IMG/VR virus record: IMGVR_UViG_3300034062_004993
Direction: 5' to 3' (one strand)
From: an uncultured virus (IMG/VR IMGVR_UViG_3300034062_004993)
Taxonomy: Duplodnaviria; Heunggongvirae; Uroviricota; Caudoviricetes
Length of the DNA: 54,786 bases
Below are positions 15,181 to 53,906 of this stretch, piece by piece; position 1 is the stretch's first letter, and each line of letters starts with the position of its first letter. The notes beneath the pieces are model-generated. The model made no database searches. It was not told the origin of the DNA and saw nothing but the letters and a program-made list of their open reading frames with translations. Both the position numbers and the translations under genes were made by a program.

Positions 15181-15250
15181 ATATACAAAATTATTTTGTA
15201 AATTCCAAGTTTTATGTATTTAAATTTGATAATAATGTTTACCACAATGT

Positions 15251-15574
15251 TTAGTGTTTAGTTTCTTCAATTAGTTCTCCGTCTTTCCAATGACGGGTTT
15301 TGGTAATGTTTCCCTGTTCATCAAATTCCTCCTCAATTCCATCCGCCTTACCTTCTTTGTATGGGGTTCTCCAATGGATTTTTCCGTTTTCATAGAACAT
15401 TTCCTCAATTCCATCCTTCTTATCCTCTTTGTATGAGGTTCTCCATCGAATGTTTCCGTCCGCATAGAACCACTCCCAAATACCTTCTTGTTGCTCTTTT
15501 GAGTTTAGTTGTCCTTTGACCCATATATTTCCGTTGTCATAGTATTCAATGTAGGGTGTGAGTTTGTTTTTCAT
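15251..15574 (-). CDS. MORN/YwqK-like repeat protein
   Basis: YxNGNI..KxDGIEExF repeats; start at MKNKLTP. Confidence 0.8.
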   Translation of the reverse strand: MKNKLTPYIEYYDNGNIWVKGQLNSKEQQEGIWEWFYADGNIRWRTSYKEDKKDGIEEMFYENGKIHWRTPYKEGKADGIEEEFDEQGNITKTRHWKDGELIEETKH

Positions 15575-15578
15575 AGGT

Positions 15579-16373
15579 TTAGTGTTCAGTTGTTTCAATT
15601 AGTTCTCCATTTTTCCATAGAGTGGTTTCTACGATGTTTCCTTGTTCATCAAATTCCTCCACAATTCCATCTATCTTACCCTCTTTGTAAGGGGTTCTCC
15701 ATTTGATATTTCCGTTTTCACCAAAAACCTCCTCAATGCCATCCTCCTTATCCTCTTTGAATGGGATTCTCAATCTGATGTTTCCGTTAAAATCGAACAA
15801 CTCCCAAAGACCTTCTTCTTGTCCTTTGGAGTTCTTTTGTCCTTTGATATACACATTCCCGTTGCGGTGATATTCAATGTGGGGTGTGAGTTCGGGTTCA
15901 GTTGTTTCAATTATTTCTCCATCTTTCCATAGATAGGTTTCGATGATGTACCCTTGTTCATCAAACCACTCCTCAATACCATCTATCTTACCCCGTTTGT
16001 ATGGGGTTCTCCGTTGGATGTTTCCGTATTTATAGAAGAACTCCTGAATTCCATCCTCCTTACCTCCTTTGTAAGGGGTTCTCCAATGGATGTTTCCGTT
16101 TGTATAGAAATACTCCCAAAGACCTTCTTCTTGTCCACTGGAGTTCTTTTGACCTTTAACCTGTACATTTCCGTTGGGGTGGTATTTAATGTGGGGTGTG
16201 AGTTCTGCATTTTCCGACTTGGATTGAATGTTTGTGTAAATATCGAAAATCTCGTCTATGGTGTATAGTTTGTTTTTGTAAAAACGACAAACACCTGCTG
16301 TGTGCTTTGCTTCGTCTGTGTGGATTAATACCCACCTTGCGAATTTAACTTGCTCGTTCATTTTGTTTTTCAT
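15579..16373 (-). CDS. MORN/YwqK-like repeat protein (two modules)
   Basis: Two ELTPHI..NGNV..WKxGE modules. Confidence 0.85.
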   Translation of the reverse strand: MKNKMNEQVKFARWVLIHTDEAKHTAGVCRFYKNKLYTIDEIFDIYTNIQSKSENAELTPHIKYHPNGNVQVKGQKNSSGQEEGLWEYFYTNGNIHWRTPYKGGKEDGIQEFFYKYGNIQRRTPYKRGKIDGIEEWFDEQGYIIETYLWKDGEIIETTEPELTPHIEYHRNGNVYIKGQKNSKGQEEGLWELFDFNGNIRLRIPFKEDKEDGIEEVFGENGNIKWRTPYKEGKIDGIVEEFDEQGNIVETTLWKNGELIETTEH

Positions 16374-26625: not shown

Positions 26626-26748
26626 TAGTCAGGACAGGATTCGAACCTGTATGTGGTATATTTCTCTGTTTATTTTCTCTCATCCATTAGGATATTGAGC
26701 CACATCGTTAAACAATAAATCGTGCGTCTACCATTCCGCCACCTGACT
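26626..26748 (-). repeat. tRNA-like variable-centre element, copy 1
   Basis: AGTCAGGTGGCGGAATGGTAGACGC-73 nt-ACAGGTTCGAATCCTGTCCTGACTA. Confidence 0.9.
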
Positions 26749-26890
26749 AATTTAGTAATTCATCTGTTGAGTATCCAGTCAACATTAAACACTTAATTTC
26801 CGTTTTTAGCATTCTAAAAAATATCAAAAATGCTCTTCTACTAGGTCTTTTCCAAAACAATTTCCAAATATAATTTAATGTTCTAAACAT
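26747..26890 (-). CDS. Small basic protein between elements 1 and 2
   Basis: MFRTLNYIWK..; stop codon overlaps 5' end of element 1. Confidence 0.5.
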   Translation of the reverse strand: MFRTLNYIWKLFWKRPSRRAFLIFFRMLKTEIKCLMLTGYSTDELLN

Positions 26891-26903
26891 ATCTTTAATT
26901 TTG

Positions 26904-27017
26904 TAGTCAGGACAGGACTCGAACCTGCATGTGGACCTTGTGTGTATTTCAACTATATTGCGGTTTGTTCCACTCCGTTTCACTATTCGGGGCGTCTACC
27001 AATTTCGCCACCTGACT
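26904..27017 (-). repeat. tRNA-like variable-centre element, copy 2
   Basis: Same flanks, different centre. Confidence 0.9.
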
Positions 27018-27018
27018 A

Positions 27019-27576
27019 TTATTTTTCTATCTCTTTGTTATATTTTATTTTAAGTCCTAATTCTTCTAAACCTTTATCATGACAATCTTTTACTGCTTTC
27101 ATTCCATGCTTGGTAGCAATTGTTTCAAGTACCCTAGCATGATAAGCTTCTTCTGGTTCAATAACCTTAAACAACTCAACCAAATCCTTTGGTGTATTAG
27201 GATCGTTTATGATAACTCTCATGCGTTTAAGTGATAGAGTTTCAGCATAAGCACCAATAGCAGCAGCGGTGCTACAATCAATTACACACGGAAGTGTGTT
27301 TCGCCAATACCTTCCATCTTTGGTAGATTTGATAAATAAAGTAATGTTTCTATCCTTTAGGATTTTTTCAACCAATACCGAATGTTGTGCTTCTTGTTCA
27401 GCTATTCTCCTAAAGATAACATACGCTTGCATATCATTTTTACAATAGGTGTCAGCAAAATTGATGAAACGTTCTTCAGCATCTTTCTCATTGTTATATA
27501 AACCAACAAGCCAGTGTTCAAGTTTTTCTTTATTATTTAAACAATCATTCCACCACTTTTTTGTTATTTTTAACAT
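27019..27576 (-). CDS. Ferritin-like domain protein
   Basis: E..ExxH (QEAQH) and E..ExxH (EEAYH) pairs; start MLKITKKWW. Confidence 0.7.
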   Translation of the reverse strand: MLKITKKWWNDCLNNKEKLEHWLVGLYNNEKDAEERFINFADTYCKNDMQAYVIFRRIAEQEAQHSVLVEKILKDRNITLFIKSTKDGRYWRNTLPCVIDCSTAAAIGAYAETLSLKRMRVIINDPNTPKDLVELFKVIEPEEAYHARVLETIATKHGMKAVKDCHDKGLEELGLKIKYNKEIEK

Positions 27577-27593
27577 AACATTATTTTTTTTAG

Positions 27594-27715
27594 TAGTCAG
27601 GACAGGATTCGAACCTGTACGATGCATTTCTCTTGCACCTCGGAATTAATGGCCTCACGAAATTAATTATTTCGTTAGCTTACTTGCTGCGTCTATCCAA
27701 TTTCGCCACCTGACT
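27594..27715 (-). repeat. tRNA-like variable-centre element, copy 3
   Basis: Same flanks; centre has several hairpins. Confidence 0.9.
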
Positions 27716-27848
27716 GTTTGTTTACATCTCTAAATCAAACACATACGCTATAATAATATAGGAGATAAGGAAAATACCTATAATTGTTAATATAATTGGT
27801 CTCAATATTTTTACACTTACTAATTTTTCCATATTTTTTAATTTTTAG

Positions 27849-27945
27849 TAGTCAGGACAGGATTCGAACCTGCGTATGAGAGACTCATCTATACCTTTTT
27901 ACCGATGCAGACTAACCCTTTGCGTTACCAATTCGCCACCTGACT
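27849..27945 (-). repeat. tRNA-like variable-centre element, copy 4
   Basis: Same flanks. Confidence 0.88.
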
Positions 27946-27949
27946 ATGT

Positions 27950-28226
27950 TTCCCTATCCTGAGATTCCAGACGGGTAGATTTTAACGGGTTTCTCTCACT
28001 GTTCGAGAACCATATCTCCCTCTATTATTTGGCAACCTAAAAGATTAACCATTCAAAAAGTGGGCCTTTTTCATTAGTGTCTTACCACATAAAAACCTGT
28101 CAACACTACTGGGAGGAGGTGTGTCGCTCTCCTTTATTCCCATGCCGTCCCACTCACGCTGACTGACGGTCTGCGGGTCTATTGTTTAAGTCTTAGACCA
28201 AAGACTCTGAGCACCTCTTACTCATT
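27950..28226 (-). ncRNA. Candidate structured ncRNA
   Basis: ORF-free, GC-enriched, many stems and an apparent pseudoknot. Confidence 0.5.
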
Positions 28227-28227
28227 G

Positions 28228-28332
28228 TCCATTCTGTTGGATTCGAACCAACTTACTCGTCTTACATTCGGATTAGCGCTAACCAGGCGATGTAAGAGTC
28301 AAAGTGTTTTAACCACATAACACTAAGAATGG
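28228..28332 (-). ncRNA. tRNA-like RNA with long extended central stem
   Basis: CCATTCT/AGAATGG acceptor; AGTGTT/AACACT D-arm; GTTGG TTCGAAT CCAAC T-arm. Confidence 0.65.
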
Positions 28333-29153: not shown

Positions 29154-29191
29154 ATAAATATACGAAATATTTTTTATATTTCCAAATTTTG

Positions 29192-30147: not shown

Positions 30148-30220
30148 TGACCCCGAGCAGGATCGAACTGCTACTCCCCTGATTAAAAGTCAGGTGCTTT
30201 ACCAATTAAGCTACGAGGTC
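30148..30220 (-). tRNA. trnK: tRNA-Lys(TTT)
   Basis: CCTGA CT-TTT-AA TCAGG. Confidence 0.92.
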
Positions 30221-30823
30221 ATATTCTTTTTTCAATCTATGACATCTATTATAGTTTCCACCTTTGGGAGTTAATCCAACAAAAATCAAAGATTGTCTGA
30301 AATTCCATTTATTAATCAACAATGATTCTAACAAAGTTTCATCGGTAACTTTCATTTTTCTTTCTTTTTTATTTCTACCTCTCCATGTAGAAGTAATTGA
30401 ATGGCAGTTAGGACATAACATTTCTAAATTATCTCTATTGTTGTTAAAGTGATTACCATCTTTATGCTCTAATTCTAAAACTAAAGTGGTGTTTAACCAC
30501 TCACTCAATCCACATTTATTACATTTTTCTTCCTGTTCATAAAGTATTCTAAACCTGAGAGATTGAAAACTAAGTTCAGAGTATTCTGATTGTAATATTT
30601 GGTTTTTATGATTTTCTTTTCTTATATTTCCAATCTTAATCCAAAAACTACTAGGTCTATTGGAGTTTGATTTTTTAACTTTTTCAGAGTTTTTTGCAGA
30701 TTTAGATTTTTTTAACTTATCAGATTCTGTCCAATTTCTACTATTTCTGCAAGATAACGAGCAATAATTAACTAAACCTCTAGATGGTTCAAATTCATTT
30801 CCACATTTTTTACATTTTTTCAT
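30206..30823 (-). CDS. HNH (homing) endonuclease with N-terminal Zn-finger
   Basis: CKKC..YCSLSC; CNKC..LELEHKDGNHFNN..NLEMLCPNCH. Confidence 0.88.
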   Translation of the reverse strand: MKKCKKCGNEFEPSRGLVNYCSLSCRNSRNWTESDKLKKSKSAKNSEKVKKSNSNRPSSFWIKIGNIRKENHKNQILQSEYSELSFQSLRFRILYEQEEKCNKCGLSEWLNTTLVLELEHKDGNHFNNNRDNLEMLCPNCHSITSTWRGRNKKERKMKVTDETLLESLLINKWNFRQSLIFVGLTPKGGNYNRCHRLKKEYDLVA

Positions 30824-31188: not shown

Positions 31189-31284
31189 TAGTCAGGACAG
31201 GATTCGAACCTGTAATTAGGATTATTTAATCGGGCTCCATACCGTACCTACCTTTCGATGCGTCTACCATTTCGCCACCTGACT
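31189..31284 (-). repeat. tRNA-like variable-centre element, copy 5
   Basis: Same flanks. Confidence 0.9.
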
Positions 31285-31490
31285 ATTTCGGGACGGGAGT
31301 AAGCCGCTCCCATTTGTCCCTACTGAATTATAGTTGGTTTGTTGTTATAAAGAACTCAAACCCATCTATCAAAAAAAAACTTCTACCTTCGTCTAGTGAA
31401 CCTGTATCCTGCCGTTCCCTAATCAATCGATTGTTACTTTTACGTCTCAACAATCCACGTCCACGGCGGACAAGAAAAAAAGACGGCTTG

Positions 31491-31591
31491 TTGACTAATA
31501 TGGATTCGAACCATAATCCCCCGCCCCAGATTTCAGCCTCAGATATTTACCTACTTTCAAGGGGCAGTGTGCTCCATTACACCATAGCCAA
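31491..31591 (-). ncRNA. tRNA-like RNA with 33-nt anticodon loop
   Basis: TTGGCTA/TAGTCAA acceptor; GCCCC/GGGGC stem; TATGG TTCGAAT CCATA. Confidence 0.65.
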
Positions 31592-31640
31592 TCGAGAGTT
31601 TCGAACCTCTCAGTCTTAGGTTAATTACTCCTAAGATTTG

Positions 31641-31740
31641 TAGTCAGGACAGGATTCGAACCTGTATGTGGTAATCCTTTCAGATATTTCTCACTTACGT
31701 TTTTGCCGTATTAGCGTCTAACCAATTCCGCCACCTGACT
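31641..31740 (-). repeat. tRNA-like variable-centre element, copy 6
   Basis: Same flanks; identical to copy 11. Confidence 0.92.
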
Positions 31741-31839
31741 GATTAAAAAAAAAAAGAAACAGAGGTCATCCAGTATACAGTGTGCGCCTCACCTGATGCA
31801 TCAAGGGACTGTGCGTTTGCGTTTTACTTGTTTCTTTGG

Positions 31840-31953
31840 TAGTCAGGACAGGATTCGAACCTGTATGAAATCATCTTTGGGTACATAAATGTATTTCTAC
31901 ATTCAAGCTGACTTCTCACTTTGTTAGCGTCTAACCAATTCCGCCACCTGACT
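31840..31953 (-). repeat. tRNA-like variable-centre element, copy 7 (followed by encoded CCA)
   Basis: Ends CCTGACT-A-CCA. Confidence 0.9.
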
Positions 31954-31964
31954 ATTTTTTTATG

Positions 31965-32035
31965 TTGTCCCCCAAGGATTCGAACCTCGATAAGCAGAAT
32001 CAAAGTCTGCTGTCCTGCCGTTAGACGAGGGGACA
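31965..32035 (-). tRNA. trnQ: tRNA-Gln(TTG)
   Basis: GCAGA CT-TTG-AT TCTGC. Confidence 0.92.
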
Positions 32036-32045
32036 ATGGCTTTTC

Positions 32046-32061
32046 CAATATGTCAAAGAAC
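32046..32061 (-). promoter_or_regulatory. boxA-like antitermination motif in tRNA operon leader
   Basis: GTTCTTTGACATATTG between promoter and first tRNA. Confidence 0.6.
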
Positions 32062-32097
32062 GATGGTTTTTTAATGAGAACCAACTCAAGAACAAAA

Positions 32098-32129
32098 CAA
32101 ATATACTAAACAATTTTCAATTTTCCAAA
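32098..32129 (-). promoter_or_regulatory. Bacteroidota sigma70-type promoter of tRNA operon
   Basis: TTTG(-33)..TATATTTG(-7); similar motifs near 8900, 15180, 22320, 23015, 23785, 29157, 45520, 48315. Confidence 0.65.
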
Positions 32130-32154
32130 TTTTTAATATTATCTTTTTGTTAAG

Positions 32155-32187
32155 AAAAAAAAAGCCCGAATTTTATTGTTCGGGCTT
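32155..32187 (-). terminator. Intrinsic terminator
   Basis: AAGCCCGAA-loop-TTCGGGCTT followed by T-run. Confidence 0.8.
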
Positions 32188-32369
32188 GCTCTTTTAGATT
32201 TGTATTTGTTATATACACATCCACGGCACAACCCTACCGCCAATATAGTTTACTGGTGTAAACCATATTTTATCTGATTGGAGTTGATTGTTTGAATGCA
32301 TAGTATTTATGTTTTTATTCTTACAATAAGTATATAAAAAAATTTTAAAAATATGATAATGGTTTTTAG

Positions 32370-32455
32370 TAGTCAGTACAGGATTCGAACCTGCAATTTG
32401 CAACCTTAATGATGGTAAAGGATTCGGCTAGCCATGCCTCATTACACTACTGACT
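32370..32455 (-). repeat. tRNA-like element, divergent copy 8
   Basis: Acceptor AGTCAGT/ACTGACT (compensatory change), T-arm conserved, D-arm different. Confidence 0.75.
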
Positions 32456-33605: not shown

Positions 33606-33701
33606 TTATTCAATATTTCATTTCATTTTGGTTAGGGTTTAACATTTTGGTGGTGTCAACGAAATGGTATAAAGGCTGACGATGAGTTCATAAATAAGGT
33701 A

Positions 33702-37001
<3,300 letters not shown>

Positions 37002-37289
37002 TTTAATTAGTTTTTATAGTTTCAAACAACCGATACCTCCCACACGAATCGGTCAGGGTCTTGACTTGAGGCCCGAATCCGTTGGAGCGGGATAGCACAT
37101 ACTCGCAGGCGTTACCCTTGGCCCGCACCTCAATCACCTTCCAAGGGCGGTCGTTGGTGCAAGCGGTCAGCAGGAGCAGAAGTAGGAATGGTCTCATAAC
37201 TTAATTTTTTAGTTTTTTAATTATTACATAGTAAAGATAGGGATAAAACCCCATATTTCCAAGCTTTCTGTATTAAATTTAGGTTAAAT

Positions 37290-38101
37290 TTATTCATTTT
37301 CCATATCAATCCAATCCACATCACCATCTTCCATCATATTATTATCTTCCAATAGTGTCCAATACCGCTCTTTCCACCTATCTAATTCAACACCATCTAT
37401 GAGTTGAACTTGTCCCGTTTTTTTGGCAAGATATGCAATACCCCAATTAAGTATTTCTTCGGCCTGGTTTAGTAAACCATCTTCCAACATTACCAATACC
37501 CGTTTATAATTTTCGGTTATGGTATCTAATTTTTTTGGTTTTCTTCCTCGCTTTTTCATATGTATAAAATTTTATCGGTATAAAGTAACAATTGACCCAA
37601 AATTAGAGTCAAATACCCTAATCAAATTTTCGTAATCACCACTCATCATTTCGTTTACGATTTCTTTGGAATTAAATCCCAATTGTTTGGAAAGATTTTG
37701 AGCAAGACCAATGAGATAAAATGCATTTCCCTGCGGCCCTGTTAAATCAACTTCAATAGCTGAATTTTTTACTTTTTGCTTAATAGCCATAACTTTTATT
37801 TTTAGTTTTTTAATTATTACATAGTAAAGATAGGTATAAAACCCCACTTTTCCAAGCTTTCTGTATTAAATTTAGGTTAAATTTTATGCTTTCCAAAGGT
37901 GTAATAATCTTGAGCCTCATCATCGGCACTCATTTTCATTTCATCATCAATCCTATCACTATATTTTATCTCATTAAAGATAACGGCTATCTTGTTCTTA
38001 TCTTCTTGTGTGGCATGCCCACTATCTTCAAAAATAATAAGTAACTCACAAGCACTATTTAATAATCGTTTTAAGGTTTCGCTGGTCGTTTCGCTGGTCA
38101 T
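37290..38101 (-). other. Three small hypothetical CDS (37290-37559, 37572-37790, 37877-38101)
   Basis: ORFs; the second has a conserved-looking DLTGPQGNAF..MMSGDY motif. Confidence 0.6.
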
Positions 38102-38143
38102 CGTCTGTTGGTTTATTGGTTGAACAAAAGTCTTTGATGGTAG

Positions 38144-38638
38144 TTATGGTATTAGTTTGTATTTACGTCCGTTGTGTTCAATGATTTCGGGGGGGCGGTT
38201 GTCAATAATTGCACCAACTGAATCCTCAAAGTAGATGACATCGCCATTTGAATCAAATTCAGATTTAAACCAATATCCACTTGAATCTTCACCATAGAAA
38301 CGATAGTCATTTTTGTCCATAATTTCAAGGTTGCCATTGGCCTCAAAGTCCCAGTTCAGCCATTGGCCGATTGTTTGTCCGTCTTTCATGGTTAGGGTAT
38401 TAGTTGATATTTTTTGCCGTTGTGTTCGATGATTTGAGGGGATGCGGTTGTCAACAATATTACCGCCTGAATTTTTAAAGTAGATAACATCGCCATTTGA
38501 ATCAAATTCGGATTTAAACCAATATCCTTTTGAAGTTTCATGGTATATATCGTCGCCATTCTTGTCTTTAATTTTAAGGCTGCCATTGGTCTTGAAATTC
38601 CAGTTCAGCCATTGGCCGAGTGTTTGTCCGTCTTTCAT
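38144..38638 (-). CDS. Tandem paralog pair fused by a +1 frameshift
   Basis: Two MKDGQTxGQWLNW..DNR modules. Confidence 0.65.
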   Translation of the reverse strand: MKDGQTLGQWLNWNFKTNGSLKIKDKNGDDIYHETSKGYWFKSEFDSNGDVIYFKNSGGNIVDNRIPSNHRTQRQKISTNTLTMKDGQTIGQWLNWDFEANGNLEIMDKNDYRFYGEDSSGYWFKSEFDSNGDVIYFEDSVGAIIDNRPPEIIEHNGRKYKLIP

Positions 38639-38642
38639 AGGT

Positions 38643-38967
38643 TTAGTGTTTAGTTTCTTCAATTAGTTCTCCGTCTTTCCAATGACGGGTTTTGGTAATG
38701 TTTCCCTGTTCATCAAATTCCTCCTCAATTCCATCCGCCTTACCTTCTTTGTATGGGGTTCTCCAATGGATTTTTCCGTTTTCATAGAACATCTCCTCAA
38801 TTCCATCCTCCTTACCTCCTTTGTATGAGGTTCTCAAATGGATGTTTCCGTTTTCATAGAACCACTCCCAAATACCTTCTTCTTGCTCTTTTGAGTTTAG
38901 TTGTCCTTTGACCCATATATTTCCGTTGGGGTAATATTCAATGTAGGGTGTGAGTTCGTTGGTCATA
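38643..38967 (-). CDS. MORN/YwqK-like repeat protein (near-duplicate of 15251-15574)
   Basis: Start MTNELTP; 3' ~150 nt identical to the 15251 copy. Confidence 0.8.
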
Positions 38968-39346
38968 GGTTTAGTGTTTAGATTGTTATGTGCCATTTTA
39001 GTGAACACAATTCCGAAGATTCCACTCTTGAAGGTCAATGTACTTATCATAGGTACACTCTTGACCACTTTCAATCTCATAAATTTGATTATCAAAAGCG
39101 TCTATTTTATCTTGTTTTACAATCCATTCTTTATACTCGTCAAGAGTGTTGAAGCCAAACATTTGACCTTTCTGATTATTTACTACTATTATCATAATTT
39201 TTGAATTAATTTGGTTTATTGGTTGAACAAAAGTGCGTAAATGAATCTGCCGAAGAAAATTACACTAAGCACTACTGCTAACGTTGTAAATCCATACTCA
39301 AGTATAGTTACAACTAAATGGTTATTGGTTTTTGGTTTCATAACTT

Positions 39347-39901
39347 TTATTTAGAAGCGGATTGAATTATACTAAATGCTTTACTAACCACTTTTTGGTC
39401 AGATACATATTTTACAGTATCATTGAATTCCCTACCCACATTTACCACCTCATTCACCACCCATTCAACTTTACCAAATGGAGCCCGATTATCAACAAAC
39501 ACATACTTAACCGAAGCTTCCAACACCATACCCGTCAAACCACAAACCGAACCTGAAGTTTCATAACTCTCATAGATATCATGCATACCATTGAATGTAC
39601 CATACTCCCAAAGGTGGGCAAATTTTTCTACCTCATAAGCAATTTGTGAATCAACGGGAGCACCCATTTTAGTGTAAAGATTAACCCGAAGAGAATTACC
39701 ACCAGAGAAAGAGTCCGATTTTACCGAACACATAACCCCATTATAATTCATTTTAACAAACTGCTTTACCAATGAACCTGCGATTGGTGCATTGATATGA
39801 ACATATTTTACGCCGGAATTTGACCCGTAGGTTTTAGTACGGAGGGCTGTGGTGGGAACTTCAAAGTTCTGACCATTAATTTGGATTACCATTTTTTTCA
39901 T
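39347..39901 (-). CDS. Hypothetical early protein, LPD29-like
   Basis: SVKSDSFSGGNSLRV..GTFNGMHDIYE motif. Confidence 0.55.
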   Translation of the reverse strand: MKKMVIQINGQNFEVPTTALRTKTYGSNSGVKYVHINAPIAGSLVKQFVKMNYNGVMCSVKSDSFSGGNSLRVNLYTKMGAPVDSQIAYEVEKFAHLWEYGTFNGMHDIYESYETSGSVCGLTGMVLEASVKYVFVDNRAPFGKVEWVVNEVVNVGREFNDTVKYVSDQKVVSKAFSIIQSASK

Positions 39902-39979
39902 AATGTTTGTTTTTTTAACTTACATAGTAAAGATAGGGATAAAACCCCATATTTCCAAGCTTTCAATATTAAATTTGCG

Positions 39980-40348
39980 TTAATTTTCAGTTTCTTCGAT
40001 TAGTTTCCCTTCTTTCCAAAGTTGGGTTTTAATGATGTTTCCGTTTTCATAGAACAACTCCACAATTCCATCTATCTTACCTCCTACGTGTGGGATTCTC
40101 ATACTGATGTTTCCGTTTTCATAGAATATTTTCCATATGCCGTCATATTGCCCTTTTGAGTTCTTTTGACCTTTGACCCATACATTTCCGTTGGAGTGAT
40201 ATTCAATGTGGGGTGTGAGTTCGTTGGTCGTTGTTGGTTCAACGTTTTTAGATACTGTCTCATACTGTTCCAAACGCTCTTTGAGCTTTGCGTTTTCTTC
40301 TTCAAGTTCTAATATGGTCTTAACCATACTGGTTATTAATTCGTTCAT
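39980..40348 (-). CDS. Coiled-coil plus MORN-like repeat protein
   Basis: ELTPHIEYHSNGNV module. Confidence 0.75.
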   Translation of the reverse strand: MNELITSMVKTILELEEENAKLKERLEQYETVSKNVEPTTTNELTPHIEYHSNGNVWVKGQKNSKGQYDGIWKIFYENGNISMRIPHVGGKIDGIVELFYENGNIIKTQLWKEGKLIEETEN

Positions 40349-40351
40349 CTT

Positions 40352-41911
40352 TTATTGCTCGTTCAAAGGGTTAGTTTCGATTAATAAGTTGTCAAGTACG
40401 GTCATGAAAGGAAATTCTGTGTAGTATTCAACTCCGGCAACAGTTCGAATCGATTTTATTCCTCCTAAATACAGTACAGTTTCTAATGTCAAATGATACA
40501 TAAAATATTTTTCTTCTAACTCTTTAACAACTTTGGCGATTGTGTTGGGGTAATGAACGGCTTTTTTATGCAAAGCATAAACCACTTCAGGTTTTAAACG
40601 GGAATAAAGATTTTTCATATATTATTTTTATTTTTAGTTTCTCAATTATTACATAGTAAAGATAGGGATAAAACCCCATATTTCCAAGCTTTCAATATTA
40701 AATTATCGTTAAATTTTGGAGGAGGGGGGTATTGGTCCAAACGAAAAAAAACACCAATACCCAATCCTCAACCATCTATTATACCAATGATGCCATACAC
40801 TCTTTAGCGTATGTGGACAAATACGGGTAATGGAGAGCAATCTTCAGCGTATGTGGAAGATGAACTCATAATCATACCATCTGTCTCTACCTCTACCATA
40901 TACTCACTCCATACCCGGCGTGCCTCTTCGTGCAAATGCGCAAGTTCCTGTGAAGAGGAATATTCGAGCTGATAAGTGGTTTCGGGCTCGGTGGTGTTGG
41001 GGAAATCTCCGGTGGGGAAATAAACTCTGAAAGTAGCAATCATAAAAGGGGGGTTTAGTTTCTCAATCATTACATAGTAAATATAGGCATAAAACCCCAT
41101 ATTTCCAAGCTTTTTCCCCAAAAGTTATCCACATTTTACAAAAAAAAAGTGTCCAATTTAGTGGACACTTTCATATAGAGTATTTGGTATTGTTTTACTT
41201 CCAATCAATTTTAGGGCAGTATTTGTGATACTTTGCTTTCACCATCTCAACGATGATATTGTCTGTCTTTTCAGTATTACTATTCTTTGATTGCAAGTGT
41301 TCTTTTGTTTTAATAATAGCCCAAGTAATGCCAACTATGATAAGGGAAGTCCAAACACAAAAACCAAAAACTATCATTACCATAAGTAATGAATCCTCAT
41401 CAGGGATGTAAAAGAAAAGACTCAATGTTGAAATCGTGCAAATAATAGCAGCGATAAAGAACCAATAAACAAACGATGTTCCGAGCATATCACCGTATGT
41501 GTCCCGACGACTACGTTTGTAGTTGATGATTTCATAAGGTAGGGTATAAATTGCAAACAAAGGTGAAAGAATCACCGCAGTAACCAGTTTCCAAAAGTAA
41601 GGACACAGGTTGGTGGGCATTGTGTCGGTTTTATAGAACCAACGATAGAGTTTTGCCGAGAGTGAGTTTTGATTTAGTTTCATTTGTTTTTATTATTTTA
41701 TTTTCACGGTAGACCTAATGGTTCCATTTATCTCTACCCTAATATCTAGCACATTTGTAGAATCCACCACTATGTATCGACATCCGTCAACACTATACAC
41801 AATGCCTTTTGGGTATTTCTTTTGAAGCATCTCCTTATCTTGAGAAACAGTGGTGGCATTACAACTTACCAATAATACACCGATGCTGAAAATTGCAATT
41901 AACTTTTTCAT
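40352..41911 (-). other. Small hypothetical CDS (40352-40618, 40804-41043, 41195-41683 membrane, 41693-41911 lipoprotein-like)
   Basis: ORF track; TM segments; LVSC lipobox. Confidence 0.55.
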
Positions 41912-41953
41912 GTCTTTTGTTTAGTTTGTTTAGTTTTGTTTTAAATTGTTTAG

Positions 41954-42061
41954 TAGTCAGTACAGGATTCGAACCTGTAAGGAAGGAGGATTACTATTAA
42001 ATCTAACAAATGTTACCAAGTTTAGATTCCTCAATGCGTCTACCAATTCCGCCACCTGACT
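41954..42061 (-). repeat. tRNA-like variable-centre element, copy 9
   Basis: Same flanks; centre with GAGGA/TCCTC and AATCTAA/TTAGATT stems. Confidence 0.88.
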
Positions 42062-42067
42062 GTTTGA

Positions 42068-42250
42068 TTATTCAATGTACGACCATTTAATAATATGTTT
42101 CTCTTCACATACATCATTATACGAAGGTATGTACCATTCATCATTTTCATAATAGCAAACCTCATATTTCGGTACGTTCTTCAAAGAACTTTGAATTAGT
42201 ACCCAACTACCATCTTTTGGTTTTCCATTTTTAATTTCAACCCATTCCAT
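42068..42250 (-). CDS. DUF551-like small protein between elements 9 and 10
   Basis: MEWVEIK..P..VLI..W..I.KW pattern. Confidence 0.55.
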   Translation of the reverse strand: MEWVEIKNGKPKDGSWVLIQSSLKNVPKYEVCYYENDEWYIPSYNDVCEEKHIIKWSYIE

Positions 42251-42266
42251 ATTCTTTAATTTTTAG

Positions 42267-42349
42267 TTGTCAGTACAGGATTCGAACCTATATGAACTTT
42301 CATTCTCGGGAAGGTTTCCCTAGCGTCTATCCAATTCCGCCACCTGACT
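42267..42349 (-). repeat. tRNA-like variable-centre element, copy 10 (slightly degenerate)
   Basis: Same flanks with substitutions; directly follows a promoter module. Confidence 0.8.
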
Positions 42350-42440
42350 GTGTTTCATATCTCTTTATCTTACATAGTAAATATAAGGATAAAACCCCAC
42401 ATTTCCAATCTTTTTATGTTAAATTATCGTTAAATTAATT

Positions 42441-43628
42441 TCACGACTTCTTGGTTGGGATTAGCACCGTTGCGTTATCGTCTTTCACGAGTTCCCAGTT
42501 GTAAGTGGGTGAAAGGTAGAACGAGCGTTTATCTAGTTCCTGATTGTCTGAATTTCTGATTTGTATAAAATCATTCTTAAGTCCCAAAGATTTACAAACA
42601 TCCGCTGAAACAACTCTTTGCCCGGGTTTATTGGCGTGCTCAGAGAAGTCAAAATACTTGCTATCCTCAGGGAAGCAGTTGGGGTGGTTCTTCTTGATTT
42701 TTGGTTTCCATCCTCCACAAGCCATATCGTGCAGTCCACGGATGGCTTCTACAGTAGTAGTTCCATCCAACTTGAAGTGTTCTGTAAGGTATTCCTTTTG
42801 TGGGGTAGTGGCTGCGTTGTAGTACTCGTTGAGTAACTCACGGGAGATTCGAATTGATTTTGACATGGTTGTTTGGGTTGGGTTTGTGATTTGACGGAAT
42901 TGTTCAAGGGAGATTTCTACAAATTGAGGATAATCGGCAATACAATTTTTGATGTCTCCAGCATAGTACTTGCTTTCGTCCTTCGGATGCTCGGACATTA
43001 GAGTGTATCCAACCTGAAAATGGAAATCTGTGTCTGCATTTTCCTCCCACCATGCTTTGAGTTCTTTAAAGTTTTCTTCCGTGGCTTCAATGCACCAGTG
43101 TTCAGGGTGTTTCATGGGTTGTGAGTTTGTGATTTCACGGAATTGTTCGAGGGTGATTTCTTGGTAGTGACATTTTAGAAAGTTTCCAAAGTCCGAAAAA
43201 AAGTAAGTACCGTCGTATGGGTGTTCAGACACAAGGAATGAGCCTGGTACAAACTTGTCGTCCCATTTTGACGCTTTACTCGTTCTTTTGCTCAACCTCC
43301 AACGATTGAGTTCTGCGTGGTTTTCTTTGGTTACGGGGATGTACCATTTTTCGGGGTGTTTCATAGGTTTTGGGTTTGTGATTTCACGGAATTGTTCAAG
43401 GGTTATTTTTTGGTAGGATGGATACCTTGCGGTAAAACCTTTTTCGGAGCCACACCAATAATAACTTGAGTCTGTTGGGTGCTCTGAAAGTAGGAAGGCG
43501 CCTTCTCTTAGGCGGGTGTCTGGGTCCTTTGTCCATCTGCTTTTTAAGGCTTGCTTTCGCCACCACGTTTGGAGTTCTGCGCGGTTCTCTTGGGTAACAG
43601 GTATGTACCATTTTTTTAGGTGTGTCAT
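42441..43628 (-). CDS. Protein with three tandem ~85-aa repeats
   Basis: KWYIPVT.EN..EL..W..SEHP.D..ITLEQFREITN x3. Confidence 0.8.
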   Translation of the reverse strand: MTHLKKWYIPVTQENRAELQTWWRKQALKSRWTKDPDTRLREGAFLLSEHPTDSSYYWCGSEKGFTARYPSYQKITLEQFREITNPKPMKHPEKWYIPVTKENHAELNRWRLSKRTSKASKWDDKFVPGSFLVSEHPYDGTYFFSDFGNFLKCHYQEITLEQFREITNSQPMKHPEHWCIEATEENFKELKAWWEENADTDFHFQVGYTLMSEHPKDESKYYAGDIKNCIADYPQFVEISLEQFRQITNPTQTTMSKSIRISRELLNEYYNAATTPQKEYLTEHFKLDGTTTVEAIRGLHDMACGGWKPKIKKNHPNCFPEDSKYFDFSEHANKPGQRVVSADVCKSLGLKNDFIQIRNSDNQELDKRSFYLSPTYNWELVKDDNATVLIPTKKS

Positions 43629-43647
43629 TCGTTTTTTAGTTTTATAT

Positions 43648-45482
43648 TCAAAAAGGATTGGTGATTTGACGTGTTAGAATTTTTGAATCTTTTTCTGGAC
43701 GAGATTCGATGTCCAATGAAATGGACTTGCCGTAGCATTTAGCAACGATGATGTCATCGCCGTAGCTGTCTTTTTCAACGGCAAACCTTACAAACCCAGC
43801 GCCTTCGCATTTTTCATTATAACCAACCATGTCTTTGTGTTGGATTGCCGCGGAAAAGATGATTCCACTCCCTTCAACGATTACGTATTTTGCTTCGTAC
43901 ATTTTTATATACTATTTAACTCCAACCATCAAAGTATATACATCACATTCCATCAACCTAAACATATCTTTAGGGAACACACTTTTCAAATCGGTAGTAT
44001 CAAAGTACTCATTTTCGTAAATGGGTAATGATAGTTTGGTGTCTTTACGCATGGTGTGTCTTTCGACCCACTCATTAACATCGACTACCAACATGTAATT
44101 TCCGTTTCTTAACATAGCTTTTATTTTTAATATGATTAAATATACGAACGAATTTTATGGTGTTAAGATTGAAATGATCAAAACTAACAAGATTGAATAA
44201 AGTATAAAAGTTATACCAAACCCTACTATAATTCCATCAAAATATGTTTTTTCTTTTTTCATGTTTTGTTATTTTATTAAACTTTAAATTTCCAATTCGC
44301 CAACCACCACTTATTATAGGCAAGGGTGGTGATATATACCAACCCAAATAATGCCAATACGGTAATGGTTTTCAATACTACAATATAGATTGCGAGTAAA
44401 TTGAGGATATCTGATAGAATTTCCATATTATTTACAGTTTTGTTCTTTGGTGGAGTAAAGGTTGACAAGATAATTAAACTTTTCAACAGCCTCAAATACC
44501 GAGCAGGTAACTGCTTTAAGGAGCATGGATGATTTTAGTTCGCTGAACATAATGGTATCATTTGATAGTTCAATCGAGAGGTTCAATTTTGGGAAGGTTT
44601 TTTTCATACTGTTTGTTTTTTTAACTTACATAGTAAAGATAAGGATAAAACCCCATATTTCCAAGCTTTCAATATTAAATTTGCGTTAAGTTTTTCTCAA
44701 TAATGAGACGAACCCGTTCCCTATCAACGGAATCAAATTCAATGTCGCTTAATGGTATGCTTTCCAAATACTCATTACAGGCGGCAATAATCCCCTTTTT
44801 TGTAGTAAGTGGGTAAATACCATTACGCAACTCATAAAAAGTTATACAATATTTGTAAAACTCTTTGATTAAAACTGAATATTTTTTCATATCTCTTTTT
44901 GTTACATAATAAAGATACTACAAAAACCCCATATTTCCAAGCTTTTTCCCCAAAAGTTATCCACATTTTACAAAAAAAAAGTGTCCAATTTAGTGGACAG
45001 TTCTTATTGACCTTGGGTTTGCAAATCTATAATCCCCAAAGCCTCACTTATAACGGAAACAATTCGATATGGAATTATTTTATTTATTATCTACTCAAAA
45101 ATGATAGTTGAACTTCTTTTAAAAGTTTCCTACCCAATTTTTTATCATTACGAAAGGTATATTTGTTTTTTACACTCATAAGTGTATTAGCCCTCACCAA
45201 CTTTTCGATTTCAGTTTCGTTATAGCCAATACTTTCCCATGTCGCAATTAATTTACTTTCAACCCTCTGAAGTTGTTCACTAATATCATTTTCGATATGA
45301 GATTGGTTTATCTTAAAAAAGATATTACCACGTCTTATTTTATCCCGAAAAGAATTACCCATCCCAAATATACAAAAGTTTTGGTAAATCTGCCTACGTT
45401 GGTTATAATCCATACCTACCATTTCTTTTTCCATAATTTCTAATGTTTCTTCGAAACTGTACCTTTTATTATTTGCACACAT
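43648..45482 (-). other. Small hypothetical CDS cluster
   Basis: 43648-43902, 43912-44115, 44675-44890, 45087-45482 and others. Confidence 0.5.
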
Positions 45483-45589
45483 AATTTTATTGTTTAATAT
45501 TTTTTATTTAGTTAGTTATTACAAATATACGAAGTAAATTTTGTTTTTCCAAATCCTTATAGAAAAATTTACTACTCATATTTGAGGAC

Positions 45590-48500
45590 GTTAGTCCCAA
45601 TTCATAGGAAGACAGTCATGAGAAGGTACATCATAGAATTTTTCACCTGTTTCAATATTTTGTAGTGTATAGTATCGTGTACCTATCCTATAAGGTGCAT
45701 AAGTTGACAAAATTTTATGAACCTTATGCCTATATCGTATTAAATCATCACTAACATCAGATATATGTAATTTTTCATTACTATTATCCAAGTTTTGTTC
45801 TAAATTTTTATCTTCTTCTGTATCACCATCTACCGTTCCTTGTAAAAAGGATAAGTATTTTATCTTTTCAATTTCTTTATCAGTATAAAACCTACCACTA
45901 ACACCAAATAAACCCAATAAAAGGTTTTGTGCTTGGTTTTCAGTTATCAGTTCTAACCTAAGTTTTTCTGCTATTTCTAAAATTTGTTCTTTCATATCTT
46001 TTACTGTGTTTATTTGTGAACCGTTAGCGGTAATACTAATAACCCAACAAATACATCTTTCTACCCCAAGCTTTTTTTGCTTCTTGTTCATTACCACCAT
46101 AAACAATCTGATACCAATCCACCCACATTTGAGGCTGGGCAACTGGATTTGGTTCAGATGAAGCACTACCGCTAACAGCAGGTTGCTTCAATGGCTTAGT
46201 TTCTTTCTTTTTTGACATTTTATCATTTATTTAAAGTTTGTAATCCTACACAAATACAACATACTGGTGGAATATAAGTGGATGTAAACTTCACAAATAA
46301 ACGAGTTAGTTGCAATTTTTCTTACACCACATAATCTTGCTGCCTTTTCGCAAATGAACTAATCGTAATTCATAACCTTTATCCATCATTTGTTGCATTT
46401 CTTCTAATTCTTTAAGTTCTACATCATTGAAAGAGCGTTCATTTACTCCATCCTTAATCTTAATGTAGTTCTTAGCAAAATCATAAAAACTGCAACTAAC
46501 ATCGTGTAGTGCTTGTTTAATTTCATCACTAATTTCTTCATCTGTTTTTTTAACATTTTTCTTTTTCATATTCTATATTTTTTAATTTGTAAAACAATAA
46601 TTTAACTAAACCTAACAAATGATAAACAACATTAAAACGATTGTTTATCATCGGACGTTATGTGTAATTTAATCAACTTTGTATTTCCTACCACCTAAGT
46701 GATGTTCGTGTATAAACTTTGATTTACATCTTGAACATTCATACTTACTATGATAATTACTTTTCCAAATCAAAGTTTTCTTATGTATTCCAATTAAACA
46801 CAATAAACTACACATAACATCAGATATATGTAATTTTTCATTACTCTTATCCAAGTTTTGTTCTAAATTTTTATATTTTTCCATCTTATTAATTTTTTAC
46901 CTTGTGTTCTATATATATTTCTCTGTACATCTTATATTGTTTCCCGTAAAAATCAACCAAGAAAAAATTCCAATTATCATTACCATTTCTACCTATTAAC
47001 ATTGCGTGTATATTTTGTAGTTTATAATACATCATAGCCACCTTACCATAATTGTCGGGATTATTTTTTAATTCATCAATCTCGTCCAATCTTTTTTCTA
47101 ATTCAGTTTTAGGTATAATCAACCTCATAAACTTTAAAAAATAATCCCTAATTTTTTCTTTTGTTTTCATAATTCAAAAATTAATACTAAAATATAACAA
47201 GGTATATGTGAAATACCTCATAAAGTTTCTACTAATTATTTAAGTTCTGTGGTAAGGTACTTCACATATACCCAACCGTTAGTGGTAATTTTAATCTTTG
47301 TATCTTCTCCATACCGCAGAACCATCAATACCATCTTTCCACATTCCTTCGTCATTTTCCTTAACAGTTTTGAAGAATTCTTTAACTAAATCCAACACTT
47401 CTTTTTTATCCATTTTTACACCTTCGTAATATACATCATCTCTTTGATTTCTGAAGAATTCTTCAAAACGATTAAAACTACCACTAACATCAGATATATG
47501 TAATTTTTTATTACTTTTATCTAAGTTTTGTTCTAATTTTTTATCTTCTTCCATTTTGTTGAATTTTATGTTAAAACTACATATATCTGAGTATCGTTAT
47601 AAACAATAAAAAACCTTAAAGTGGTGGTTCTAAATTGTCTTTTATCTTATCATAAGATTCTTTAATCGCTTCGGATAATACTTGTTCGATAGGTTTTTTA
47701 CTATTTATAACAACGGATATATGAAATAAAAAATTAATAGATTCTACAAACTTTCTAATTTCTTCTTCTGATTTACATTCTCGTTGAACAACACAAAATT
47801 CACCCCTAACTACTTTACAAGTTTGGGTTTCTATGTTGTAATAAAGTATTGGTAATCTACAAGGGTTTCCACATATCTCTGTATCTTCTTCACCTAAAAC
47901 CCAAACTTGTTTTCCAGTGAATACATCAAGTATCTCACTAAAACCTAATTCTGTTAAATTTTGTGTTGTTATCATCGTTCTGATTATTAATTTTTTACAT
48001 TCATATATCCGCAGCCGTTATGTGTAATTTATTCAAAAATAATCACGTTTAAGTTGTTCCTCTTTAATTAGAATCTCCCTTTGTTCTTTCATTTGACCAA
48101 TTACTTCATCGAAATTTTTACTCATTTGTCTTTCAAACTGATTTTCATTTTGGTAATCTAATGACACTTCGTGTTTAACATCAAATCCGTTTTCTCGTAA
48201 AAATTTCTTCAATAAGAAAATTAAACGTGATTTTCCACTCATTGCTCTACCAGATACGGTAATAATTAATTTTTCCTTTTCCATTTTATATTTGTTTTGA
48301 GTTTAATATAATTAAATATAAGAAATAAATTTTGATTTTCCAAATTTTTTATCAGGTTAACTTAAACCTACACAAATACAACATACTGGTGGGATATAAG
48401 TGGGTGTAAACTTCACAAATAAACGAGTTATAAGTAATATTATTTTTTAATTGGTTTCTTCTTGTTCTTTTTAGGTTTTTTACATTCATCAAGTTTAGTC

Positions 48501-52025: not shown

Positions 52026-52331
52026 CTAAGACTGTACCCATTCACAATCAAATTCTTGACAAAGATTTATAAATGCTTGTTTTTCACTTCCACATTCGTT
52101 GATGTATTTTTCAGAAACACAACCAAAATCACCACCATTTCTTGTCCACTCAATACCATACTTAGTTCTTTCAATCCAACAAATGTGTTTCCCTCTTTTA
52201 TCAGCATCATCAATAAAACAGATAGGTTTCTGTTTGTCAAGAATTAAACTATAAAGTTGTTCGTAATCTTTAGATAATTTATACATACTATCGTATTGCT
52301 TCAAATCGCTTAATTTAATTTCGTTTTTCAT
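52026..52331 (-). CDS. Hypothetical protein
   Basis: ATG ~17 nt after element 11. Confidence 0.6.
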   Translation of the reverse strand: MKNEIKLSDLKQYDSMYKLSKDYEQLYSLILDKQKPICFIDDADKRGKHICWIERTKYGIEWTRNGGDFGCVSEKYINECGSEKQAFINLCQEFDCEWVQS

Positions 52332-52347
52332 ATTATTTAATTTTTTG

Positions 52348-52447
52348 CAGTCAGGACAGGATTCGAACCTGTATGTGGTAATCCTTTCAGATATTTCTCA
52401 CTTACGTTTTTGCCGTATTAGCGTCTAACCAATTCCGCCACCTGACT
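52348..52447 (-). repeat. tRNA-like variable-centre element, copy 11
   Basis: Identical to copy 6 over 99 nt. Confidence 0.92.
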
Positions 52448-52680
52448 AAAATTTGTTAAGGCCATTTTAAATCGGGTGACTTATTGTCATCTTGAAACTC
52501 CCAATAAGTATCACCAAGTATTTGATCCACCTCGTCTGATGTATTTTCAAATGCGTCAAAAATAACTTGCATCACTTCCTTTTCGGTTACATTTAGAATT
52601 TTAGCAATTCCAATAATGTGGTCTTCTAATGGTAAATCTCTCATTTCGTTTTAAAATTAATCCGGTTTATAATTGTTTTG

Positions 52681-52783
52681 CAGTCAGGACAGGATTCGAA
52701 CCTGCAAAGTATGGTGAGTTCATCCGTTGTACCCATACCTTTAACATTACTACTCAAGCGTCTAACCATTCCGCCACCTGACT
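52681..52783 (-). repeat. tRNA-like variable-centre element, copy 12
   Basis: Same flanks; GTATGG/CCATAC stem. Confidence 0.9.
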
Positions 52784-52838
52784 ATAAATGAAGGTTCCAT
52801 ACTTAGTCTTTGCGGGAAGTCACCTCCAACCCACCTCG

Positions 52839-52936
52839 TAGTCAGGACAGGATTCGAACCTGTAAGTACCGACTGGGCTTATTTCTGTTTTAAATGCATC
52901 GCCTGTCCAGTGCGTCTACCATAACGCCACCTGACT
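52839..52936 (-). repeat. tRNA-like variable-centre element, copy 13
   Basis: Same flanks; ACTGG/CCAGT stem with ~30-nt loop. Confidence 0.88.
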
Positions 52937-53826
52937 ATGTTTACTCTTTAATCAATTTTTTATACGCCTTATCAGTTCCAAGACCCATCATATCAATATT
53001 TTTTCCTTGGTCGTACCATTCAGTTTTAATCCAGTTGTCATCATGATACCAAGTTTCCCAACCATTTTCACGAAGTAATTTAGATTTTTCTTCGTAGTTT
53101 TCAATTTCGTGTTTTTGTTTTAATAGTGCCATGTATTTTATATTTGTAGTCAGTATTCGATTAACTTTTTACGTAATTCATCATTTCAACCATTTCACAA
53201 CAAATAAATGAAATAATTTTTAATAATGAACAAAGTTGAACTCGTCATTCAAATCAACAAAATATCCATTATCCTGTGCATTTTTAACTATTTCCATAAT
53301 ATCCTTTGTTTGTGCATACCATCTTTCATAAGAATTAATATCACCATTCAATACTTTATCTGTTCCTGGAATCATAACTGCCTCATCATTATCAATTGTG
53401 TTTGCAGTTTCTCCATCAATTAAAAATGCACAAATATCACCATCAGCATCAGTTAGTTTAACTAAATATGCATTCTTATTTTGTTGATTTTCATTCACTT
53501 TTTCGTTAAAATTAAGTATGGGTTTCATAGTCGTTTTTTATTTGTTTTGCTTTTAGTTGATTTGATTTGCAGTCAGGACAGGAATCGATTAACTTTTTAC
53601 GTAATTCATCATTTCCACCATTTTCTGAATCAACAATTCCATTTCATCTTTGTTAAGATACAACTTACCATTCAATGTTTTATCGTCCAACTCTTTTGTT
53701 TCAACTATAATGCCATCAAACTCATCTGTCGGATAAATGCTTACGTTTTGTTCTTCAGTTGCAATAACTGTTTTGTTCCAAACTTTGTTTTTCATTTGTT
53801 TTGTTTTTAATTTGTTAATTTGTTTG

Positions 53827-53906
53827 TAGTCAGTACAGGATTCGAACCCGTAATATCAGCTTGCTTATTAGGCTTGCTTCTGCGCTACCAATTCCGCCAC
53901 CTGACT
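53827..53906 (-). repeat. tRNA-like variable-centre element, copy 14 (shortest)
   Basis: Same flanks; 29-nt centre with no anticodon stem. Confidence 0.85.

Follow-up and report, generated by a model that had tools for sequence, protein, structure and literature searches.

The tRNA array of an uncultured tailed phage raises the question of why tRNA-like elements alternate there with single small genes, and of what such elements are. A sequence-only reading of the window (the whole stretch of 54,786 nt analysed here) had placed four elements and three genes at 26626-27945 and had suggested that the elements either punctuate a polycistronic message or act as recombination or integration anchors for accessory genes. 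All four elements and all three ORFs were found at these positions, on the minus strand throughout (Table 1). We show that the elements belong to a widespread, uncatalogued, anticodon-less family with a tRNA core, here called shells, whose constant arms are the joints at which their variable middles (inserts) and the stretches between them (intervals) are exchanged.

The spacing described earlier was reproduced. The ATG codons of the 47-, 185- and 36-aa ORFs lie 14, 18 and 17 nt past position 72 of the upstream element, and their stops fall at -2 (an overlap), 1 nt before and 6 nt before the next element, in agreement with the claim that the genes end at or just before an element. One-to-one alternation holds in this array and at 41954-42349 but fails as a general rule, as only 56 of 319 copies have genes on both sides. 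Recurrence of the pattern was likewise seen at 41954-42349 and only in part at 52026-53906, where one interval is a 56-nt non-coding piece.

Table 1. Features of the focal array and of related sites in the window
Feature	Position	Strand	Remarks
Element 1 (shell, insert M13)	26626..26748	-	RF00005 38.3 bits, anticodon arm unaligned; followed by tRNA-Pro
47-aa basic ORF, mobile cassette	26747..26890	-	ATG 26890; stop TAG
Element 2 (insert M12)	26904..27017	-	
185-aa ferritin-like di-iron protein, MiaE-like by fold	27019..27576	-	ATG 27576
Element 3 (insert M11)	27594..27715	-	
36-aa hydrophobic ORF	27722..27832	-	ATG 27832
Element 4 (insert M10)	27849..27945	-	RF00005 47.4 bits
Nearest upstream promoter-like site, TTGGAA-N17-TATATTT	29155..29185	-	pattern match only
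HNH endonuclease gene inside the tRNA array	30206..30823	-	PHROGs phrog_14736, E 1e-27
Four elements (31190-31284, 31642-31740, 31841-31953, variant 32371-32455)	31189..32455	-	non-coding blocks and tRNA-Gln between
Promoter-like site (42408-42378), element, 60-aa ORF, element	41954..42349	-	
Four elements, two 3'-half remnants, small ORFs	52026..53906	-	

Architecture of the shells and their variable middles

Read on the minus strand, a shell consists of AGTCAGG-TG-GCG...CGC (acceptor 5' strand and D arm), a variable middle, U48, and ACAGG-TTCGAAT-CCTGT-CCTGACT (T arm and acceptor 3' strand), followed by A or G at position 73. Shells keep a 7-bp acceptor of tRNA-Leu type, the D arm, a 5-bp T arm with a TTCGA loop (a 7/5 pairing) and A73, and carry a variable insert of 30-140 nt where the anticodon arm would be. 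Thirteen full shells are present in the window, together with one shell whose 5' arm is divergent (32371-32455) and two remnants of 3' halves (53571-53588 and 53148-53160). All shells of the window lie on the minus strand; a 3' arm match is absent from its plus strand, and the rest of the 161.6-kb contig is without shells. The shell at 52349-52447 is identical to that at 31642-31740, 20.7 kb away. Both remnants begin at the T loop and are preceded by the same ~35-nt gene-end sequence, and the junction at 53571 is also present in genome G009. The longest ORF in the intervals of 31190-32455 has 30 codons.

Pattern scans of IMG/VR (at least 125 and at least 120 stretches) yielded at least 363 distinct shells of 68-190 nt (median 107) in at least 301 loci, once 13 loci from the phage's own genome or from the same phage had been dropped and overlaps collapsed by exact sequence. 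The arms were located by exact pattern, so their invariance is partly built into the search and the free positions are the informative ones. Among the shells listed, these are U48 in 86%, A73 in 90%, C74 in 99%, U-1 in 84% and A-2 in 75%. The 312 true tRNA genes of the same loci have C74 in 97%, U-1 in 69% and A-2 in 63%, and all 38 Leu tRNAs have A73. CCA is rarely encoded by the shells, and the same is true of the tRNAs beside them. The acceptor appears in the minimum free energy fold of 246 of 252 copies among the matches listed. Stem deviations in the listed shells comprise 91 G-U pairs, 20 compensatory changes, 21 other mismatches and a single A-C (41, 14, 15 and 1 without pair 49-65). 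G-U thus far outnumbers A-C, although a transition yields either equally often, which suggests that this strand is selected to fold as RNA. The D stem GTG is paired with CAC in 11 of 14 copies. The tRNA-Leu genes of these phages have a matching D arm, and one of them likewise begins AGTC, so the shells are likely to derive from tRNA-Leu.

ARAGORN listed 29 genes and called one of 14 shells (53826-53906), while five of the 14 reached the gathering score of RF00005; in Rfam only tRNA was matched at gathering score, with no tmRNA or Y RNA match at that level. The prokaryote genome collection (bacteria and archaea) contained only four exact shell matches, all in short MAG contigs, and none of 50,697 cultured-phage records covers 80% of element 4. 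The phage's DNA comes from lake and freshwater sequencing runs. The literature searched, mostly papers readable without subscription, contained no account of the shell family.

The D arm could be parsed in 252 of the 363 listed shells, giving 239 middles in 191 families. Canonical tRNA-Leu was considered and rejected as an identity for these elements: an anticodon-like stem-loop (5-bp stem, 7-nt loop) occurs in 2 of 191 insert families against 0.6% of shuffles. U33 reaches 28% among the matches listed, no anticodon is favoured, and positions 32-37 show no conservation. By these sequence features, shells are unable to decode and bear no resemblance to spliced tRNAs. Folding of the listed inserts is modest (mean z -0.83, with 16% below -2), and most are weakly structured. 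Among the matches listed, a helix ends beside U48, the place where the long variable arm of tRNA-Leu ends, in 112 of 191 families against 32% of controls, and a helix starts at position 27-28 in 61 of 191 against 22%. In the largest family (nine members) all 26 named pairs are kept, two of them with compensatory changes within the middle; as the members are related sequences, this is suggestive of a conserved insert structure. Each of the four focal inserts has too few relatives for covariation.

A guide function received no support from sequence matching. The 13 inserts of the window score 24.7 bits against the phage's own genome, the target searched, and shuffled inserts score 24.8. When 337 inserts were compared with element-masked loci, nine matches (and no shuffled ones) reached at least 40 bits; eight of these fall in other, unmasked tRNA-like elements and one is a 20-nt A-rich match. 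The variable middle, which the sequence-only reading had overlooked, is itself an exchangeable and partly structured module. In four loci (L156, L308, L058 and L056) shells whose inserts are identical or nearly identical to window copies carry a long insertion in the D loop, which may be a third exchangeable slot.

Several other repeated features share the accessory region. Two further anticodon-less tRNA-like elements with other acceptors lie at 28228-28332 and 31491-31590 (minus strand; RF00005 30.5 and 29.5 bits), and the G006 counterpart of the former has a ~140-nt insertion. One 54-nt insert recurs, at 96%, in L077 within a shell whose acceptor differs, so inserts may be common to several shell families. 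Between tRNA-like elements, other phages conserve the minus-strand non-coding blocks at 27946-28222 (277 nt) and 31285-31490 (206 nt), wholly or in part, at 73-99%, and both are candidate structured RNAs. Repeat families D2 (promoter-like) and D11-D14 (around gene ends), with a PeSL-like look, punctuate the region (33470-54376, 33676-49709 and 46223-49703), and genes with MORN_2 repeats are present in several copies (15249-16188, 38641-40229, 54366-54689), with further copies in the extension contributed by a second record, G002.

Constant arms as joints between related phages

Three close relatives (G001, G005 and G006) share blocks of ~88-100% identity with the window array in differing orders. 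Inserts and inter-element stretches are reordered, lost or duplicated among them, and the joints fall within the ~26-nt arms. The 5' and 3' arms, the same in every copy, are in this sense joints that exchange two kinds of module between related phages: inserts, and intervals made up of a small gene, a non-coding block or tRNAs. The suggestion that the elements anchor the shuffling of accessory genes is in this way borne out by gains, losses and reorderings with joints in the constant arms, and gene content between elements varies among relatives rather than being invariant.

The 47-aa interval, whose contexts were drawn from three genomes and from protein extensions, is flanked by M12/M13 here, by M18/M19 in G001 and by M20/M9 in G005, and is cleanly absent from G006. 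G006 equals G001 minus this cassette plus one insert: M18 is joined there, within the 3' arm, to the block that G001 has after M19. The insert of element 3 is 100% identical in G005 between other flanks, and the tRNA-Pro flank stands after three different inserts in three genomes. Across the window, G001, G005 and G006, eight of nine shared inserts have more than one downstream neighbour (genome pairs agree in 1 of 16 cases), and all seven shared interval ends precede more than one insert (pairs agree in 2 of 18), in a tally from which G009 was excluded, as were M4 and M21, which are duplicated within a genome.

Of 156 internal alignment ends, which are not independent events, 51 fall in shell arms in both genomes, 7 in shell arms on one side, 72 in tRNAs and 26 elsewhere. 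Shell arms make up 7-11% of the DNA, and sequence that is neither shell nor tRNA, holding the last 26, makes up 55-63%. Among the matches listed, 60 of 70 near-identical insert pairs differ on both flanks, as do 40 of 73 pairs of the same true tRNA gene. Because canonical tRNAs are reshuffled too, shells are best regarded as hot spots in a generally plastic array and not as its sole joints. Both the 5' and the 3' arm act as joints, with no single fixed crossover point.

The records G000, G002 and G003 are identical over 16.5 kb, and the ferritin cassette is matched without difference by contigs from DNA runs of 2020 and 2024; wherever comparison is possible, the arrangement in this phage is the same in all three records and both DNA runs, which argues against a fast switch. 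The run comparison used contigs from 4 of 24 listed runs, and the arm-to-arm joints seen in run contigs, with sides of 20-32 letters, probably come from shells of other phages. Two RNA runs contain pieces 98-99% like the phage, and the ferritin bin is almost uncovered in both, through a strain difference or low expression.

The enzymes available for such exchange were sought among the larger ORFs of the genome. G000, the record of this phage, is a linear contig that is 84% complete; G002, a second record of the same phage (100% over 16.5 kb), overlaps both of its ends, which gives a circle of about 217.5 kb. T4-like genes include those for gp23 capsid, T4 portal, sheath, PolB, RecA, gp32, Mre11/Rad50-like proteins and endonuclease I. 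The ORFs scanned were 87 of 89 of at least 90 aa at 1-107 kb of G000 (two plus-strand ORFs left out), 56 in the window, and 66 of 71 of at least 100 aa in the G002 extension (the other five being four excluded plus-strand ORFs and one counted with the window). None of these ORFs of the closed circle matches the integrase, serine recombinase or reverse transcriptase families, and PF00589 has no match in six frames of G000. Together with the use of both arms, this speaks against the earlier idea of integration anchors. We consider homology-driven recombination by the phage's RecA, gp32 and Mre11-Rad50, perhaps helped by the HNH nuclease of the array, to be the probable mechanism, and it would act over evolutionary time with no programmed switch. 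About 26 nt is short for RecA-type recombination, and no circular or other intermediate turned up.

The same genome encodes two RNA ligases and a kinase-like protein (L321:4416-7975, in the G002 extension), which points to tRNA repair, as well as canonical Leu tRNAs and a Tad3 anti-Thoeris protein (L320:9499-10068, same extension). Also at L320 (10607-12743), thymidylate synthase is in two pieces around a DUF7487 ORF, a possible candidate for an intron. Proteins with T9SS tails are encoded, and a TTGGAA-N17-TA..TTT promoter-like site, which we take to resemble the Bacteroidota promoter consensus, is repeated in the genome by pattern match; these two features suggest that the host is probably a member of the Bacteroidota. 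A sigma-70 promoter scan gave fewer hits than chance (24 vs 31.9).

Passenger genes, transcription and stop-codon overlap

In profile searches the ferritin-like protein matches Pfam PF02915 (E 2e-6) and MiaE (E 0.0025); it has 126 homologs and no match in the PDB sequence search. Its structure model (pLDDT 94) is closest to the fold of MiaE (TM 0.72, E 0.015), with no significant lead over other ferritin-like folds, and the protein is possibly a phage tRNA-modifying enzyme. Among the four arrays compared, its cassette is present in this phage only. Homologs of 70-75% in other phages have no shells around the gene, and in three loci (L128-L130:8530-8680) the homolog sits directly before an ORF that we take, by recognition, to be smpB-like. 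In L131/L132:8001-8534 the homolog has an in-frame stop in place of the Glu of its relatives, which may reflect stop recoding in these large phages or a broken gene. The 36-aa ORF has an 81% homolog between two other shells in G009, and the 47-aa ORF has 18 homologs with 68-96% identity.

Among the listed shells with enough flanking sequence (n=319), an ORF starts within 40 nt downstream of 132 and ends within 30 nt upstream of 128, compared with 58 and 35 of 281 canonical tRNAs of the same loci. Both hold for 56 shells and for 10 tRNAs, and the opposite-strand control of the shell tally gave 22 of 319. The link between shells and genes is above chance but partial.

No promoter-like site with the same spacing lies between the one at 29155-29185 and 26.5 kb, and none of the three focal genes has its own consensus promoter. 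No terminator-like site falls within the elements located at 24.0-33.5 kb, and the phage promoter pattern is located outside the elements, in other repeats. Since the nearest promoter-like site is that at 29185, the three genes should ride in the tRNA transcript. The shells are likely to be transcribed together with the tRNA operon and to mature as true tRNAs do, through host RNase P and 3'-end enzymes, a route that would yield stable tRNA-shaped RNAs and, as a side effect, cut the message into single-gene pieces. Such processing would inevitably sever the genes from one another, and punctuation is in this respect a plausible consequence of the predicted maturation.

The overlap at element 1 bears on what such cleavage would do. 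The stop codon of the 47-aa ORF is formed by U-1, A1 and G2 of the element and straddles the predicted RNase P cut, after which the message would end in U. All 18 homologs end at the same place (within two residues) or read on from there, and five database proteins whose gene calls extend past this codon continue into a shell 5' arm and then into five different sequences. Among the matches listed, the predicted cut falls inside the stop codon of 17 of 128 upstream ORFs. Judging by the position of this cut, either translation would precede cleavage, or cleavage would switch the gene off by non-stop decay, or an added A would complete the stop.

Explanations and known systems

We favour, with somewhat more than even confidence, the view that the shells are tRNA-Leu-derived joints that are matured as RNAs and serve as a scaffold for payloads. 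They would be real RNA genes, in which a tRNA core (7-bp acceptor, D arm, T arm, elbow bases and discriminator) holds an interchangeable insert. Selection could keep the shell as a natural scaffold that gives the inserted RNA stability and precise ends, a step to which we assign slightly less than an even chance, and the array would then amount to a reshuffled collection of RNA payloads and mini-genes that serve to take over the host or to counter its defences. More tentatively, lake phages may carry a natural tRNA-scaffold expression system, a host-matured chassis with hundreds of interchangeable structured payloads that would be aptamer-like inhibitors of host defence and translation factors or decoys for them. 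Reshuffling of payloads and mini-genes at the ends of the chassis would resemble an integrase-free RNA integron, and chassis cleavage would regulate the passengers through cut stop codons.

Punctuation could instead be the selected function, with shells cutting a long transcript into single-gene messages and the inserts as filler. The retained tRNA-processing signals, the missing promoters of the focal genes and the ORF ends upstream of 128/319 shells against 35/281 tRNAs fit this proposal. It is nevertheless unlikely: genes lie on both sides of only 56/319 shells, many intervals are non-coding, filler needs no inserts of up to 140 nt with compensatory helices, and the predicted cut lies inside the stop in 17/128 cases, an arrangement kept across the 47-aa family. 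We give much the same weight to a tRNA decoy or leucine-charged mimic, whose core might bind LeuRS, EF-Tu, RelA or a tRNA-sensing or tRNA-cleaving defence while the diverse middle escapes anticodon nucleases. Recognition by bacterial LeuRS does not depend on the anticodon, the D arm is that of phage tRNA-Leu, A73 is present in 90% of copies, the variable-arm-like helix is enriched, and two RNA ligases and a kinase-like protein are encoded. A decoy has no need for 191 insert families, and CCA is rarely encoded (equally so in true tRNAs). This reading is compatible with the scaffold explanation and does not exclude it.

Selfish or neutral SINE-like repeats of tRNA origin, spread by gene conversion with shuffling as a by-product, are improbable. 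The exact duplicate 20.7 kb apart, the decayed half-copies and the high insert diversity would be expected of them, but the strand-specific excess of G-U over A-C, the kept U48 and C74, the lack of a reverse transcriptase among the ORFs scanned and the co-orientation of all copies with transcription would not. Movement of cassettes by a site-specific recombinase, as in integrons or at att sites, would account for precise cassette gain and loss and for the two remnants that begin at the T loop, tRNA 3' halves being classic att sites. Six frames of G000 and the ORFs scanned elsewhere on the circle yielded no integrase, and both arms are used as joints; we find this reading very hard to credit. 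A host or helper enzyme or an unrecognised recombinase family might still move the cassettes. Intron-containing tRNAs, as proposed for Lak megaphages, would have their anticodon arm restored by splicing. The oversized middle within a tRNA frame, the two RNA ligases and the helix at position 27-28 (61/191 against 22%) point that way. Against this stand U33 at 28%, no anticodon preference, a canonical stem-loop in 2/191 families against 0.6% of shuffles, no splice motif common to the inserts, and canonical Leu tRNAs already present. We reject the intron hypothesis, the least probable of all, as no anticodon arm can be restored and positions 32-37 are unconserved.

The scaffold explanation can be set against several known systems. 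In mitochondrial punctuation, functional tRNAs abut genes and sometimes overlap a stop that an added A completes, and gene order is fixed. Shells similarly abut genes, and one overlaps a stop codon, but they are anticodon-less and mobile, and cleavage is here predicted only. tmRNA and the stable RNAs of T4 and T5 tRNA regions mimic tRNAs or occur beside phage tRNA genes, and are single-copy with a fixed interior. YrlA, a Y RNA, joins tRNA mimicry to a non-decoding module according to the accessible text (PMC10424219); shells share with these RNAs the mimicry, the non-decoding module and the position beside phage tRNA genes, but differ in being multi-copy with a variable interior.

PeSLs of the T4-type phages RB49 and phi1 are ~100-bp promoter-terminator units, and recombination between two copies deletes or inserts the intervening ORF, as the available part of that report describes (PMC2839356). 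Shells are like them in being repeated intergenic elements of plastic T4-like regions where genes are gained and lost at repeats, but, as far as that part goes, unlike them in having neither promoter nor terminator, a tRNA fold, only two ~26-nt homology blocks and an exchangeable inner module. In the engineered tRNA scaffold of Ponchon and Dardel, arbitrary RNA replaces the anticodon stem-loop and is processed and stable in E. coli (PMC3753655, in the portion available). Shells likewise retain the acceptor, T and D arms with the anticodon stem-loop exchanged; unlike that laboratory construct, which retained the hairpin base, they are natural, of Leu type and phage-borne, and their stability and processing are inferred. 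As far as these portions of the two reports go, shells work like PeSL shuffling at the DNA level and are built like the engineered scaffold.

The Lak megaphage 'introns' are, in the preprint text apart from its supplement (bioRxiv 10.1101/356790), usually the same from cohort to cohort and lie in tRNAs whose anticodon can be assigned. Shells resemble them as oversized tRNA-like genes, scored as pseudo-tRNAs, of large phages with Bacteroidota-type hosts, but have one constant shell with at least 191 insert families and an anticodon that cannot be restored. Allo-tRNAs, in the excerpts at hand (PMC5389517, PMC7609411), have 8/4 or 9/3 pairing and anticodon arms. Shells share with them and with polycistrons of irregular tRNAs the occurrence of non-canonical tRNA-like genes in arrays, some of them outside translation, but lack the anticodon arm. 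Shells fall outside PeSLs, integrons, allo-tRNAs and intron tRNAs.

To these systems the window adds joints placed precisely at the level of cassettes in four related arrays, a closed genome in which no integrase is recognisable, a strand-bias test and a conserved stop-codon overlap. Shells offer defined, testable substrates for the role of anticodon-less phage tRNA mimics and for phage tRNA punctuation. If the favoured explanation is true, part of the unexplained 'pseudo-tRNA' content of large phages would be a modular library of non-coding RNAs and mini-genes, the tRNA region would be an engine of accessory-gene exchange with no need for an integrase, and the shell would be the natural equivalent of an RNA scaffold in wide laboratory use.
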